Below are positions 18,110 to 29,597 of a DNA stretch of 64,000 nucleotides, in pieces. Source of the stretch: Escherichia coli (GTDB lineage: Bacteria; Pseudomonadota; Gammaproteobacteria; Enterobacterales; Enterobacteriaceae); assembly GCF_003334815.1 (NCBI RefSeq), contig NZ_QOWO01000009.1. One strand, 5' to 3'. The position numbers and the translations under genes are program-made. The stretch's first letter is position 1. Every line of letters starts with the position of its first letter. Below the pieces are notes generated by a model, which saw only the letters and a list, made by a program, of their open reading frames with translations, did no database searches and was not told where the DNA came from.

Positions 18110-18240
<131 letters not shown>

Positions 18241-21127: not shown

Positions 21128-21924
21128 CAATAAACAAAACTCACAGGTGCAGCACCCGCCGGATGCGGCAAAATACCCATCGGGATGCCATAAATCATTT
21201 CGAGGGTTTCGCCGCGCATAATTTCCGCAGGCGTTCCCTGAGCAATCATTTCACCGCCGCGCAGGGCGACCAGATAATCACAGTAGCGTGCCGCCATATT
21301 GATATCGTGCAACACGGCAATGACCGTCAGGCCACGCTCCTGACTTAAACGGTGCACCAGCGACAGCACATCAACCTGGTGGGCGATATCCAGCGCCGAG
21401 GTCGGTTCGTCGAGCAACAGACAACGGCTATCCTGCGCCACCAGCATGGCGATCCACGCCCGCTGACGTTCGCCGCCAGAGAGACTATCGACCAGCCGAT
21501 GCGCCAGCGGTTTTAAGCCAACCAGCGAGATAGCTTCCTCGACTTTTTCGCGATCTGCCGCCCCAAAGCGCCCCAGCGCGCCATGCCACGGGTAACGACC
21601 AATCGCCACCAGTTCACGCACGGTCATCCCTTCTGCCGGAGGAAGCTGCTGCGGCAAATAAGCCACTTTGCGGGCAAACGCTTTGCTGCTCCAGCTTTCC
21701 AGCGGTTGGGCATCAAGAAGAATCTCCCCTTCCGACGGCGGCTGATGACGGCCAAGCATTTTGAGCAGAGTGGATTTACCAGAACCGTTGTGACCAATCA
21801 GACCGGTCACTTTCCCGGCAGGAAAGGTTAACGACAGCGGATGCAAAAGCGTGCGCCCGGGCACACGAAAGGAGATATTACGCAGTGCAAAAGTGGTATC
21901 GGAATGATTCGTGTATTCCTGCAT
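21127..21924 (-). CDS. fhuC: ferrichrome ABC transporter ATP-binding protein
   Basis: Track ORF 21127..21966 (-); trimmed to M15 MQEYTNHSDTTFALRNISFRVPG..., 265 aa, Walker A GHNGSGKST. Confidence 0.9.
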   Translation of the reverse strand: MQEYTNHSDTTFALRNISFRVPGRTLLHPLSLTFPAGKVTGLIGHNGSGKSTLLKMLGRHQPPSEGEILLDAQPLESWSSKAFARKVAYLPQQLPPAEGMTVRELVAIGRYPWHGALGRFGAADREKVEEAISLVGLKPLAHRLVDSLSGGERQRAWIAMLVAQDSRCLLLDEPTSALDIAHQVDVLSLVHRLSQERGLTVIAVLHDINMAARYCDYLVALRGGEMIAQGTPAEIMRGETLEMIYGIPMGILPHPAGAAPVSFVY

Positions 21925-24437: not shown

Positions 24438-26972
24438 TTAATTACTACCAAACATATCCTTGATCCAACCGGCTACACCGTCGCTGTCTTTCTGCTCTTG
24501 CTGAGCAGGTTGCTGTTGCGGCTGTTGCTGCGGCTGAGAAGACTGATCAAACGGATTGCCTGACGGCTGCTGCTGCATCTCGCTCTGCTGGCACAGCGAT
24601 TGCGGATCGCTGGTCCAGACCGGCAAGATACGCATGCCACCGCTGCAAACAAAGTTGCCGTCGTAGTCCACGCCCATATCTGCAATATCTTCTGGCGGAA
24701 CAAGATTCAGCGGCGTTGGCGTCTGGTTAGCCAGATAACGCTGATAAATCGACATTGCCCCGCTGGCACCATACAGTTTGGTCGGCTGGTTGTTATCACG
24801 GCCGACCCAGGTGATGGTCACCGTGCTGCCGTCAATGCCCGCAAACCAGGTATCTACGTTATTGTTGGTAGTCCCTGTTTTCCCTGCCAGATGCAGGTTC
24901 GGGTATTTCGCCCCAAGCTGACGACCCGTACCGCGTTGTACCACCTGCTGCATGGTCCATAGTGTCAGATACGCCGCCTGCGCCGGAACAGCGCGTTCCG
25001 CCTGCGGGAAGCTCTGATACAGCACTTTGCCATCTTCCGCGATTACCGAACGCAGCGCAGAAAGCGGTGCACGGTTACCACCGCTGGCGATGGTCTGGAA
25101 TGCCTGCGCCACTTCGATTGGCGTTAAGTTCAACGCCCCCAGCAGCATTGCCGGAACCGGATGCAACTGATCTTTCGGTACGCCCAGTTTAATCCAGGTC
25201 TCCGTAACCGCAGGCAGCCCCAGCGCCATCCCCAGATTTACCGTCGGCACGTTCATCGAACGGGTCAACGCATCCACCAGCATCACTCTGCCGCTTTCGC
25301 TATAACGACGGTCATCATTCTGCGGTGACCAGACCTGGCCATTCGGCTGACGCAGCGCAATTGGCGCATCCGCAATCCACGTATTCAGACGATAGATTTT
25401 CGGCTGGCTTAAGGCCGTCAGATAAGTCGCTGGTTTTGCAAGGGAACCAATCGAACGACGCGCCTGCATCGCACGGTTGTAGCCCGCAAATTGCGGCTCA
25501 GAACCTCCGACCATCGCACGAACTTCACCACTAAAGCGGTCGACGACCACAATCGCAGTTTCAAGATCGCTCAACTTACGCTGTTTCTTCAGTGCCGGAA
25601 TGCCTTCCACGGCGGCTTTTTCTGCCGCGTCCTGGGCCACCGAGTCAAAGGTAGTGAAGATCTTCACGCCGGAGAGATCTTTTACCTTATCGCCCAGTTT
25701 TGCCTGCAGCTCCTGACGCACCAGTTGCATAAAGGCTGGCTGAGGAGAGATCACCCCACCGCGCGGCTGAACCCCCAGCGGACGGGCACTCAACATGTCA
25801 TAGAGTTCTTGATCAATAATCTGTTGCTGTTGCAGCAGACGCAGCACCAGATTACGTCGCTCCAGCGCCAGTTTTGGGTTACGCCACGGGTTGTAGATGG
25901 ACGCCCCTTTCACCATACCGACTAACAGCGCCTGCTGGTCGAGGCTTAGCTCTTCTACCGGGCGACCAAAGTAATACAAGCTTGCCAGCGGGAAGCCGCG
26001 GATTTCGTTGTCGCCGCTCTGACCGAGATACACCTCGTTCATATACAGCTCAAGAATACGGTCTTTGCTGTAACGCGCGTCCATGATCAGCGCCATGTAA
26101 GCTTCGTTCGCTTTACGCCAGTAAGAACGCTCGCTGGAGAGGAACAGGTTTTTCACCAGCTGTTGCGTCAGCGTACTCGCACCCTGTACCGTGCGTCCGG
26201 CGGTCAGGTTTGCCAGCACCGCACGTCCGATTGAGTAGAGACTGATTCCATCATGCTCGTAAAAATGACGGTCTTCTGTCGCCAGCAAAGTATCCACCAG
26301 CAAATCCGGGAAACCACTGCGCGGCACAAACAGACGCTGCTCACCGTTTGGCGAAGAGATCATGGTGATCAGACGCGGATCAAGACGGAAGAAACCGAAC
26401 TGACGGTTGTTCTCCATATTGACGATCGTCGCCAGATGATCGCCATCAAAGGTCAGACGCGCGCGCACCTGTCCTTCTTTACTGTCCGGGAAATCAAACG
26501 GACGGCGAATCATCTCAATGCTGTTGGCCTGCACGGTAAATTCGCCAGGACGGGTCATTTTCGACACCTGACGATACTGGGTCGCCTCCAGCAGCTTCAC
26601 CATCTCGTTCTTGCTGATGGTCATGTCTGGCTCAAGATTGACCATTCGGCCATAAACTGCCGCAGGCAGTTGCCAGACCTTGCCATCAATACGGCTACGA
26701 ATTTTTTGATCGAGATAAACGCCGTAAATGGCGATCAGCACGGCAAAAACGATAGCCAGTTTTAGCAGTAGCCATAGCCAGCCGCGTTTGCCACGAGGCT
26801 TACGCCCTTTGCCTTTGCCCTTACCTTTGCGCGGCATCGGTTCTTCATCCTCATAGTCATCATAATCGTCGTAATCATCGTCATCTTCGTAACGACGACG
26901 GCTTACCTTTTGTTTGACCGGACGCGTCGGTTTCCCTTTGCGTCCAATTGGCTCGCGGTCATTCCCGGCCAT
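24438..26972 (-). CDS. mrcB: penicillin-binding protein 1B (bifunctional transglycosylase/transpeptidase)
   Basis: Track ORF 24438..26987 (-) begins at a TTG; trimmed to ATG (M6) [21 protein letters not shown]..., 844 aa, GGAG Shine-Dalgarno upstream; internal Met46 (start at 26837) corresponds to the known shorter gamma isoform. Confidence 0.9.
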
Positions 26973-27068
26973 GCTTTTTCTCCGCAATATTCAGGCGCAA
27001 AAGCCCGATTTTCTGTTCTTCTGTTACAAGACAGAAGAAGATATCTCTCAAAATTTGTGCTCGATCGG

Positions 27069-27157
27069 TCCCCTCTCCCTTGAGGGAGAGGGTTAGGGTG
27101 AGGGTGAACGTGCGCGCTGATGCCCTCACCCCGGCCCTCTCCCACAGGGAGAGGGAG
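27069..27157. repeat. array of three GC-rich stem-loops (dyad-symmetric repeat) between hrpB and mrcB
   Basis: CCCTCTCCC-TTGA-GGGAGAGGG (27071-27092), GGGTGAGGG...CCCTCACCC (27096-27131), CCCTCTCCC-ACA-GGGAGAGGG (27135-27155); a further inverted repeat TTCTTCTGT-TACAAG-ACAGAAGAA lies at about 27020-27045. Confidence 0.6.
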
Positions 27158-27167
27158 AAAACCAACC

Positions 27168-29597
27168 TTACGAATACTTTTTCGTCCGTCGCGTCGGTGC
27201 AGTATTTGCCGGGTCGTCCGGCCAGACATGTTTGGGATAACGCCCTTTCATCTCTTTTTGCACCTCACGGTACGCTCCTTTCCAGAAGGCGCTCAAATCT
27301 CGTGTGATTTGTAATGGCCTTTGGGCAGGTGAAAGCAACTCCAGCACCAGCGGCACGCGCCCCTGGGCGATCGTCGGATTGGTGGCCTCGCCAAACATCT
27401 CTTGCATTCTCACCGCCAGCGCGGGCGGGTTATCTTCATGATAACGAATGGCGATCCGGCTTCCCGTCGGCACAGTGTAATGCGCAGGCAATTCACTATC
27501 CAGACGTTGCTGCATTCCCCAATCAAGTAATCCGCGTAGTGCCTGATAAATGTCGAGTGATTTCAGGCCGCGTAGTGAATGTACGCCAGTCATATGTGGC
27601 AGCAGCCACGTTTCCAGCGCTGCCAATAAACTTTCATCATCAACCGCTGGCCAGTCATATTCCGGCAACCACTTTGCGGCGCATAACAAACGCAAGCGTA
27701 GCTGTTCCGCTTCCGCCGTCCAGTTGAGCACGCTTAAACCTTTATCACGGATGCCATTAAGCATCGCCTGATGCAACTCGTCTTCTGACGGTTTCGCCAG
27801 CGGCTGCACTTTCACCGTCAACTGACCGATTTGTAGCCGACGCCAGGCTTTCAGCGTACCTTGCGCGTCATCCCACTCCACAGTGTCAGACTGCTGTACC
27901 AGCTGCGGGCAGCGTTGTACTAACTCATCAATATCGACCAGCAGCGCCAGTAAAATCCGCGCATCCGGCGAGGCGCTGCCCTGCAATAATAACGGTGCGA
28001 TCAACCATTCGTGGCGGCTTAGCGCGTCGTTGGCATCGAGCATCGCTCCCATGCCGTTTGCCAGTTGATAGCGTCCATCTTGCCCACGGCGACGAGCAAT
28101 GCGATCGGCAAACGCCCCGGCAAGTAGCGGCGCGATAAGCGAACTGTCTGCCTCACCGCCACGTACGTTTAAGCGTTTTAACAGTTGCTGACTACGTTGC
28201 TGCCAGGCTGGTTGATTGCGCGAAAACGCCACGCCCAGGTCACTATTGCCCATCCGTGGCGGCTCTTCGAGAATGGCGGCAATTTTTGCCGCGGTAGCAG
28301 CTTCGTCGTCGTTCTTCGCGCTAACCAGCATTGCCGCTAAACGCGGATCGTTACCCAGCGCTGCCATTTTTTGCCCTTGCGCACTAAGCCGTTCACCCTC
28401 CAGTGCCCCCAGCATTTGTAACAGACGTTTCGCGGCCAGTAGATTCACTACTGGCGGTTGATCCAGCCAGCTCATCTGCGCCGGATCGCTGCATCCCCAT
28501 TGCAGTAATTCCATCAGCAAACCGGAAAGATCGCTTTGTAAGATCTCCGGTTCACTTTGCGCCGCGGCGCGTTCTGCTTGTTCTTTGGCGATTAAATGCA
28601 GGCTGATACCCGGCTCCAGACGCCCGGCGCGCCCGGCACGCTGCGTCATGGATGCCTGGCTAACGCGTTGAGTAATCAGTCGCGTAAGCCCCGTGCGCGG
28701 ATCAAAACGCGCCACACGCTCCTGGGCACAATCCACCACCAGACGAATACCTTCAATGGTTAAACTGGTTTCAGCAATATTGGTCGCCAGCACCACTTTG
28801 CGCATCCCTTGCGGTGCCGGGAGGATCGCTTTTCGCTGATCGTTCAGCGACAACGCGCCATACAGCGGGCAGAGCAATACATCACTGCCGATGCGCGAAG
28901 CCAGTTGTTCCTGCACACGCTGAATTTCTCCGACGCCAGGTAAAAATAACAGTAATGATCCGCTTTCCTGACGCAGCATTTCAGCGGTGGCTACCGCAAC
29001 GGCATCGTCAAAACGCTGATGCGCGGGCAGCGGTAAATAACGGCGTTCAACCGGAAACGAGCGCCCTTCTGAGATGACGACAGGCGCTTCTGGCAGCATT
29101 TGCTGCAAGCGGTCGTTGTCCAGGGTAGCCGACATAATCAGCAGTTTAAGGTCATCACGCAGACCTTGTTGCACATCGAGTAACAGCGCCAACGCCAAAT
29201 CCGCCTGCAAGCTGCGCTCATGAAATTCATCAAGGATCACCAGTCCAACACCGCTCAGTTCCGGGTCACGCTGGATCATGCGCGTCAGCACGCCTTCGGT
29301 AACCACTTCCAGGCGGGTATTCGGCCCGACGCAGTTTTGCGCACGCATCCGGTAGCCAACGGTATCGCCTGGCTTTTCGTTAAGCAGCTCCGCCAGCCGT
29401 TGCGCGACGTTACGCGCCGCCAGACGACGCGGCTCCAGCAGGATAATTTTCCCGTTAATGCCGGGATGCGCCAGCAGTTGCAGCGGCAGCCAGGTTGATT
29501 TCCCGGCCCCGGTCGGCGCACTTAATAATACCTGCGGCGCACAATCGAGAGCGGTAAGTAATTCAGGTAAGACGGCAGCAACGGGCAACGACGACAC
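27168..29597 (-). CDS. hrpB: ATP-dependent RNA helicase HrpB (DEAH-box)
   Basis: Track ORF 27168..29642 (-), 824 aa; called from GTG (codon 16) to give the 809-aa protein (VSSLPVAAVLPELLTALDCAPQVLLSAPTGAGKST), with GGAG 9 nt upstream; the ATG at 29642 remains an alternative start. Confidence 0.8.
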   Translation of the reverse strand: MSSLPVAAVLPELLTALDCAPQVLLSAPTGAGKSTWLPLQLLAHPGINGKIILLEPRRLAARNVAQRLAELLNEKPGDTVGYRMRAQNCVGPNTRLEVVTEGVLTRMIQRDPELSGVGLVILDEFHERSLQADLALALLLDVQQGLRDDLKLLIMSATLDNDRLQQMLPEAPVVISEGRSFPVERRYLPLPAHQRFDDAVAVATAEMLRQESGSLLLFLPGVGEIQRVQEQLASRIGSDVLLCPLYGALSLNDQRKAILPAPQGMRKVVLATNIAETSLTIEGIRLVVDCAQERVARFDPRTGLTRLITQRVSQASMTQRAGRAGRLEPGISLHLIAKEQAERAAAQSEPEILQSDLSGLLMELLQWGCSDPAQMSWLDQPPVVNLLAAKRLLQMLGALEGERLSAQGQKMAALGNDPRLAAMLVSAKNDDEAATAAKIAAILEEPPRMGNSDLGVAFSRNQPAWQQRSQQLLKRLNVRGGEADSSLIAPLLAGAFADRIARRRGQDGRYQLANGMGAMLDANDALSRHEWLIAPLLLQGSASPDARILLALLVDIDELVQRCPQLVQQSDTVEWDDAQGTLKAWRRLQIGQLTVKVQPLAKPSEDELHQAMLNGIRDKGLSVLNWTAEAEQLRLRLLCAAKWLPEYDWPAVDDESLLAALETWLLPHMTGVHSLRGLKSLDIYQALRGLLDWGMQQRLDSELPAHYTVPTGSRIAIRYHEDNPPALAVRMQEMFGEATNPTIAQGRVPLVLELLSPAQRPLQITRDLSAFWKGAYREVQKEMKGRYPKHVWPDDPANTAPTRRTKKYS

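Follow-up and report, generated by a model that had tools for sequence, protein, structure and literature searches.

A catalogued composite BoxC element between hrpB and mrcB of Escherichia coli, a dispensable DNA passenger with a probable role at the hrpB mRNA 3' end

The palindromic element located between hrpB and mrcB in the window (the whole 64-kb stretch of Escherichia coli DNA analysed here) is, judged by its letters, an already catalogued copy of the BoxC repeat. It is considered probable, at about three chances in four, that this composite of two BoxC units is a dispensable passenger of the DNA and that its RNA hairpin fixes the 3' end of the hrpB transcript and protects it against 3'-to-5' exonucleases. 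The BoxC element has been present in the literature since the 1990s and this exact copy was tabulated in 2015 and 2016; the finding itself matters little. Several leads may nevertheless be worth a separate look, namely the RNA 3' ends mapped at the foot of BoxC elements, a flipped allele in a locus with multiple states, the reoccupation of the same spacer in other genera, a conserved hairpin in the mrcB leader and a doubtful small protein.

Both genes are read from the minus strand of the window and correspond to hrpB (162105..164534) and mrcB (164730..167264) of strain MG1655. Positions were converted as window = 191702 - K-12 position, a relation checked at the hrpB stop and at the mrcB start. 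The locus is organised as follows.

27168-27170, minus strand: hrpB stop codon TAA (from the sequence and the comparison with MG1655)
26972..26970, minus strand: mrcB start codon ATG (same basis)
27071-27079 and 27084-27092: outer motif pair of the A side, CCCTCTCCC and GGGAGAGGG, separated by TTGA
27096-27104 and 27123-27131: middle motif pair, GGGTGAGGG and CCCTCACCC, separated by 18 nt
27135-27143 and 27147-27155: outer motif pair of the B side, CCCTCTCCC and GGGAGAGGG, separated by ACA
27071..27105, plus strand: BoxC/TMECO unit of type A (second loop TTA), CCCTCTCCC-TTGA-GGGAGAGGG-TTA-GGGTGAGGG-T, located by regular expression
27122..27155, minus strand: BoxC/TMECO unit of type B (second loop CCG), CCCTCTCCC-TGT-GGGAGAGGG-CCG-GGGTGAGGG-C, located by regular expression
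27106..27121: spacer separating the two tail-to-tail units, from the alignment of four tail-to-tail K-12 pairs
27062..27163: whole composite with its tails, about 102 nt, delimited to within a few nucleotides by the alignment of filled, collapsed and empty alleles and by the tails common to other K-12 pairs

The motifs reported between the two genes by the initial annotation were all recovered at these coordinates. Its distance of thirteen nucleotides after the hrpB stop holds as an offset, the true gap being 12 nt. The description of one hairpin placed between two copies of another had to be abandoned in favor of two inverted three-block repeats; the supposed middle hairpin arises from the third blocks of both units, which face each other. 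In the 64-kb window, four occurrences of GGGAGAGGG or its complement were counted, all at hrpB-mrcB, against 0.18 expected, and none of 100 shuffled sequences reached this number. A chance origin of the cluster is thus ruled out. Two of the three occurrences of GGGTGAGGG in the window are found at the same place.

Both units display the three-block pattern characteristic of BoxC, i.e. CCCTC(T/G)CCC, a short loop, the purine block GGGAGAGGG, a 3-nt loop and the second purine block GGGTGAGGG. They are intergenic, lying between the hrpB stop and the mrcB start, and form an inverted pair arranged tail to tail, with type A on the plus strand and type B on the minus strand. The unit at 27071..27105 is letter-identical to TMECO no. 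2 (MG1655 164,631-164,597) and that at 27122..27155 to TMECO no. 1 (MG1655 164,547-164,580) in Table 1 of Holder et al. 2015 (PMC4666352). They also correspond to HPG1 no. 6 (type A) and HPG2 no. 5 (type B) of Kaplan et al. 2016 (PMC5100583), where both are placed between hrpB and mrcB as putative G-quadruplex/hairpin motifs. According to Holder et al. 2015, this motif is the BoxC repeat described in the 1990s, which Maher's group came upon again and called the PIT element. It has accordingly received several names: PIT element (Hoyne and Maher 2000), TMECO (Holder et al. 2015) and HPGQ, subdivided into HPG1 and HPG2 (Kaplan et al. 2016). In MG1655, 23 units are counted, always intergenic, including five A+B inverted pairs, one of which is made of no. 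1 and no. 2 (Holder et al. 2015). BoxC was also recovered as a known E. coli stem-loop family in a 2008 survey; the main text of the 2026 HusR paper does not contain the term "boxC". A search of Rfam over positions 26000-28000 with permissive E-values returned no BoxC family and only sub-threshold matches to microRNA hairpins, scoring at most 29 bits against gathering thresholds of 58-105. These look-alikes were rejected, as any long GC hairpin yields such matches.

Dispersed copies were readily found by the genome-wide BLASTN that the initial annotation had proposed. Using the 107-nt element as query, matches were obtained in 5332 of 5426 complete E. coli genomes, almost all of them chromosomal; the median genome has 11 such places and the richest has 26. 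These copies, together with the match to published units, confirm the suggestion of a repeated palindromic element. Four other K-12 BoxC pairs were compared with the present one. Three of them are also tail-to-tail; the units of the lldD-trmL pair are arranged head-to-head around a 59-nt spacer. The four tail-to-tail pairs can be aligned over about 110 nt, including tails located beyond the triplex blocks, the B unit being preceded by TTTTC(T/C) and the A unit followed by GGGGACnGnnnGAGC. In the hrpB-mrcB composite, the tails are AGAAAAC on the B side and GACCGATCGAGC on the A side. The conservation of tails outside the blocks implies that the repeated unit is longer than the published 34-37-nt motif, and the composite behaves, at the sequence level, as a single element of about 100-115 nt. 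Compared with BoxC/PIT/TMECO/HPGQ, the hrpB-mrcB copy is identical in sequence, three-block architecture, intergenic position, A+B pairing and dispersion in the genome. It differs by its shorter spacer, the third blocks being 18 nt apart instead of 28-29 nt in the other K-12 tail-to-tail pairs, which does not amount to a difference in kind. The published descriptions of BoxC, for their part, omit the RNA 3' ends at its feet, the flipped allele and the presence of BoxC in this spacer of other genera.

The comparison of strains shows that the hrpB-mrcB locus varies between at least five allelic states in E. coli: filled, flipped, collapsed, shortened and empty. A 501-nt query spanning the spacer matched all 5426 genomes, with a coverage of at least 80% in 3536 of them. 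The full element is present in the window sequence, in K-12 and in O157:H7, and strain PE164 displays a 12-nt deletion between CCCT repeats. Two distinct collapses, of 64 and 63 nt, leave a single CCCTCTCCC/GGGAGAGGG hairpin. The collapse found in O111:H8 retains the loop of the B unit and that of strain 23CRST031 the loop of the A unit; since different loops are retained, these two events must be independent and are attributed to slippage between 9-nt direct repeats. Such a reduction to a hairpin was named the "palindrome effect" by Holder et al. 2015 (PMC4666352). The empty site, observed for instance in Ecol_448, E686 and O2:K1:H7 strains, is about 102 nt shorter. Finally, the whole A+B composite is flipped relative to hrpB and mrcB in 32 of the 5426 complete genomes, examples being the following.

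L092 (strain 504239), spacer after hrpB: flipped copy
L093 (strain CP53), spacer after hrpB: flipped copy
L013 (strain E69), spacer after hrpB: flipped copy

Even-step sampling of the ranked matches to the 501-nt query gives rough allele shares of about 58% for the full, 5% for the collapsed and 35% for the empty state; the element is thus neither intact nor collapsed at this locus in approximately 35% of complete E. coli genomes. All the deletions observed end in 9-nt direct repeats or in short CCCT repeats, and the internal 9-nt direct and inverted repeats account for a slippage-prone locus with several states. At the junctions of filled, flipped and empty alleles, no clean target-site duplication is visible; a few flanking nucleotides differ and the element is itself palindromic. 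At the DNA level, the element is a dispensable, non-coding and unstable passenger.

This variability can be extended to other Enterobacteriaceae. The region downstream of hrpB was taken from 80 species representatives, and the mrcB start could be located in 74 of them. BoxC units or remnants are found in the hrpB-mrcB spacer of 27 of these 74 species, which are related and do not count as independent observations, and they abut a conserved ATTTTGAGAGAT block. The genera and species concerned include Enterobacter, Lelliottia, Leclercia, Phytobacter, Huaxiibacter, Silvania, Intestinirhabdus and Kluyvera ascorbata. Three-block units are concentrated in the spacers, with 28 in 12.6 kb against 5 in 623 kb of mostly coding flanks. 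Lelliottia V86_10 (L045) carries a full flipped pair, short spacer included, of which 87 of 90 nt are identical to the plus strand of the window, an identity far above what the flanks would predict. In E. albertii and Escherichia sp. MOD1-EC7003, the spacer is in a common empty state, homologous to the empty E. coli allele. No BoxC was found in the hrpB-mrcB spacer of the representatives of Salmonella and of most Citrobacter. In Salmonella (L031, L035) and several Citrobacter (e.g. L017), REP-like palindromes such as gccggataaggcg sit at the BoxC position, so that different palindromic repeats occupy, depending on the genus, the interval that separates the hrpB stop from the conserved TTGAGAGAT block. 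Two histories are conceivable: repeated insertion into a hot spot, or an ancient presence of the element in this spacer followed by many losses and at least one flip. Its repeated filling by BoxC, in either orientation, or by REP would fit a mildly advantageous hairpin after hrpB.

More elaborate arrangements were also encountered in these spacers. In Enterobacteriaceae UBA3516 (L075 4901-5283) and Phytobacter diazotrophicus (L084 4901-5272), three tandem units of about 120 nt are present, each made of a BoxC type-B unit and a T-rich hairpin. The spacer of strain RIT691 (L059 4901-5413) reaches 509 nt and contains 8+8 BoxC blocks. In three Enterobacteriaceae or Citrobacter genomes, additional BoxC units or pairs lie some 2.6-3 kb beyond the mrcB start, apparently in the spacer that follows mrcB.

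L059 7968-8070: BoxC downstream of mrcB
L061 7601-7686: BoxC downstream of mrcB
L064 7663-7697: BoxC downstream of mrcB

At the RNA level, the element is predicted to adopt a very stable structure. Considering Watson-Crick and wobble pairs, the only ones handled by the folding tools used, both strands are predicted to fold at lowest energy into a single long, nested hairpin of -66 kcal/mol as RNA and -33 kcal/mol as DNA, with z-scores of -9.2 for the sense strand and -7.3 for the antisense strand. Three side-by-side hairpins, as pictured initially, reach -56 to -58 kcal/mol and are disfavoured by 8-10 kcal/mol, even if they might be the first to form as the RNA is being made. The stems are followed by GACCGAUCG on the sense strand or AGAAAACC on the antisense strand, neither of which makes an intrinsic terminator, and promoter and terminator scans detected no U-tract terminator-like or sigma-70-like site on either strand. 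The statement that the element is not a simple intrinsic terminator is borne out on both strands by the scan and by the missing U-tract.

Published data of the Term-seq type, which had been proposed as a check of the hrpB 3' ends, place an RNA 3' end at this hairpin.

27066, minus strand (MG1655 164636, plus strand in K-12): mapped RNA 3' end, from the curated Term-seq lists in supplementary files 1 and 3 of Adams et al. 2021

The sequence string given at 164636 by Adams et al. 2021 (PMC7815308) ends with ...AAGGGAGAGGGGACCG, 5 nt beyond the last stem GGGAGAGGG. In the available tables of this source, this end is listed once, with a low score of 987, is classed as "orphan" and apparently comes from the third sheet of three conditions (M63 glucose); no Rho-termination region is listed there near 164.6 kb. 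The same tables contain 3' ends located 4-11 nt past BoxC hairpins at MG1655 positions 632098, 847200, 3781065, 3959467 and 4231270, of which 3781065 is the primary 3' end of lldD. With the present one, six loci of a single Term-seq table therefore end 4-11 nt past a BoxC stem, and the prior descriptions of the repeat, as far as they were accessible, are silent on such ends. These ends sit awkwardly with the published view that BoxC plays no role in gene expression. PIT elements showed neither promoter nor terminator activity and no in vivo effect in earlier reporter work, as summarized by Holder et al. 2015 (PMC4666352).

These observations suggest the following scheme. Being located in the 3' untranslated region of hrpB, the element would be transcribed into a very stable RNA hairpin devoid of a U-tract. 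This hairpin would stop 3'-to-5' exonucleases, so that the 3' end of the hrpB transcript would be set and protected, incidentally or otherwise. The initial suggestion of an RNA-stability element has thus gained a mapped 3' end at the foot of the hairpin; the barrier itself, as well as any effect on hrpB or mrcB expression, is what we infer from it. Such a role would resemble that of REP elements and of the stem-loops found at Rho-dependent 3' ends. Dar and Sorek 2018 reported that stem-loops without uridines protect Rho-dependent transcripts from PNPase and RNase II. Like BoxC, these structures combine a stable stem-loop, not followed by uridines, with a steady-state 3' end a few nucleotides downstream; hrpB differs from them in that the available tables of Adams et al. 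2021 (PMC7815308) list no Rho region at this locus. Any RNA role is not essential, since the element is absent in about one third of E. coli, in E. albertii, in Salmonella and in most Citrobacter.

REP/BIME (PU) sequences are the closest functional parallel. Both they and BoxC are short GC-rich intergenic palindromes, often present as inverted pairs just after stop codons and lacking a U-tract. REP/BIME hairpins stop 3' exonucleases and define mRNA 3' ends, and BoxC may be likened to them in this respect. Unlike them, BoxC belongs to an unrelated sequence family and contains a third purine block with triplex or quadruplex potential. To our knowledge, neither a RAYT-type transposase nor a binding protein is associated with BoxC. 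A REP identity of the hrpB-mrcB element was rejected: the consensus GCC(G/T)GATGCG(G/A)CG... has matches only elsewhere in the window. The distinction initially drawn between this element and the canonical REP sequences is therefore correct, REP-like sites being found at 18114, 18186, 21158 and 52906 and none at the element. As a separate observation, these REP-like matches (GCCGGATGCGGCG and variants) extend over 18114-18198, 21158-21170 and 52906-52918, the sites at 18114 and 18186 forming an inverted pair.

Other functions were considered for the element. The interpretation favored by Holder et al. 2015 and Kaplan et al. 2016 is that it acts mainly as DNA: once single-stranded, it would form a purine-motif intrastrand triplex or a G-quadruplex, leading to polymerase stalling, instability or a structural switch. 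As the main role of the element this is possible rather than probable, and it does not exclude the RNA barrier, with which it is compatible. Oligonucleotides of both types form stable triplexes in vitro, as established by CD and NMR with Tm values of 70-82 C, and TMECO loci are more variable between strains than control loci (Holder et al. 2015). CD data also suggest a G-quadruplex/hairpin switch, and the five or more allelic states of the hrpB-mrcB locus point in the same direction. However, no triplex was seen by DMS footprinting in vivo, and double-stranded DNA of the element behaves as a duplex (Holder et al. 2015). Moreover, the deletions stop in short direct repeats and can be accounted for by simple slippage across a hairpin, so that a triplex is not needed; the instability is a side effect rather than a demonstrated function. 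The position of the element, exactly between the hrpB stop and the conserved block upstream of mrcB, would also suit a terminator or an insulator separating hrpB from the mrcB promoter, all the more as an RNA 3' end is mapped to its foot in the available Term-seq tables and, immediately downstream, a promoter has been proposed from a RpoD holoenzyme SELEX peak. Yet the signal of this 3' end is weak, U-tract and terminator-like site are lacking on both strands, PIT elements are described as devoid of terminator activity in the work summarized by Holder et al. 2015, and the element is missing or flipped in many strains and species sharing the same gene order, which makes this function unlikely. 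A protein-binding site is still less probable. It would be modeled on REP/BIME, which bind gyrase, IHF or Pol I, and the very high conservation of the blocks between copies and genera is in its favor, but no binding protein is reported in the BoxC/PIT/TMECO literature examined and the sequence data are silent on this point.

The least plausible alternative is that the element encodes a small protein, to which only a marginal chance is given. A 2024 paper in Biofilm (PMC10869245) reported a "phylogenetically conserved" 68-aa protein, D8B36_18480, encoded between mrcB and hrpB, whose overexpression lowers csgA 18-fold and which would thus act as a curli repressor. Judged by its size and position, the following open reading frame fits this description.

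26959..27165, minus strand: 68-codon open reading frame with a TTG start, which crosses both BoxC units and continues along the mrcB leader

Public databases list this 68-aa sequence, letter for letter, as a hypothetical protein from at least 1000 contigs, and the 18-fold lower csgA expression obtained with the cloned fragment is in line with a product. This phenotype could, however, stem from multicopy mrcB leader or promoter DNA or RNA. About half of the frame is a reading of the palindromic repeat, and the frame begins with TTG and overlaps, out of frame, the leader and the start codon of mrcB. About 35% of E. coli genomes have lost it, and the 64-nt collapse frameshifts it; it is absent from E. 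albertii and other genera, and the frame is not kept across strains and species. RefSeq annotates no gene at this place in K-12 and the compared strains. The initial annotation had called spurious the two minus-strand frames crossing the element, 26903..27229 and 26959..27165. Both exist, their translations being low-complexity peptides derived from the repeat, and this opinion can be endorsed given the broken frame in other alleles and the RefSeq annotation. The 68-aa frame is most likely not a gene. For annotation, this means that a 68-aa "hypothetical protein" endowed with a curli phenotype very likely corresponds to no gene at all. Many deposited versions of this frame (cluster P0002-P0015) are marked "partial", and several of them belong to contigs about 58-60 kb long. 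Breaks of draft assemblies at the repeat would be consistent with this, "partial" copies being what such contig breaks would give.

Beside the composite BoxC, with its probable barrier role on the hrpB side, the analysis revealed a second structure on the mrcB (PBP1b) side. The features concerned are listed below.

27016..27039, minus strand: hairpin of the mrcB leader (TTCTTCTGT / ACAGAAGAA), conserved and covarying, separate from BoxC
26991..27008, minus strand: a further stem (TCGGGC / GCCTGA), conserved and immediately ahead of the ribosome-binding site, a candidate with one-sided changes
27046..27051, minus strand: TTGAGA, proposed -35 of mrcB, invariant in 71 sequences

A further inverted repeat had been reported at 27020-27045 as part of the element. 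The repeat does exist, its true arms being 27016-27024 and 27031-27039, but it forms a hairpin of its own in the mrcB leader and is found in all alleles, whether or not they carry BoxC. In an alignment of the 85 nt upstream of mrcB, it is found in all 71 distinct sequences; 93.8% of the cells are paired and six of the ten pairs change on both sides. The covariation score is 0.260, against 0.154 for shuffled alignments (none of 500 reaching the observed value) and at most 0.116 for slid controls, and the helix is independently predicted by RNAalifold. The pairing is better on the mrcB-sense strand (93.8%) than on the antisense strand (85.6%), with 68 and 10 wobble cells respectively; this asymmetry, read from the alignment, points to an RNA structure of the mrcB leader. 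No Rfam family matches this hairpin. It was not found described in the literature examined, and constitutes a more interesting by-product than BoxC itself. Shimada et al. 2014 proposed, from a RpoD holoenzyme SELEX peak, the mrcB promoter TTGAGA-17-TGTAAC. Its -10 (27023-27028) falls in the variable loop of the hairpin and is not conserved across genera; with an invariant -35 and a variable -10, this sigma-70 promoter was not taken as established. No experimental transcription start of mrcB is listed in the Shigella M90T or SMRT-Cappable-seq data. As a speculation based on the letters, the invariant UCUUCU arm could pair with a GAAGAA partner or with the GGAGA Shine-Dalgarno. A broader, tentative proposal, doubtful as a whole, would take both sides of the spacer together, with BoxC as a general REP-like determinant of mRNA 3' ends and the mrcB-proximal repeat as an undescribed cis-regulatory RNA hairpin of the PBP1b leader.

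BoxC can finally be placed among other small bacterial repeats. ERIC/IRU, the pneumococcal BOX/RUP and the Neisseria Correia elements are, like BoxC, non-autonomous, intergenic, hairpin-forming, variable between strains and co-transcribed with their neighbours. Their sequences differ from that of BoxC. Correia elements and MITEs possess terminal inverted repeats and target-site duplications, the latter not being seen at the BoxC junctions. A sequence of this kind is found near the end of the window, where the lone third match to GGGTGAGGG is included in CCAGAATCCCCAGGAGCTTACATAAGTAAGTGACTGGGGTGAGGGCG, at about 63850-63905 (minus strand), which presumably belongs to the ERIC/IRU repeats, whose consensus it resembles. 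The match at 63863 was consequently rejected as BoxC, as it lies in this ERIC-like element. In the available Term-seq tables, the same ERIC-like string is listed with an RNA 3' end at MG1655 127845.
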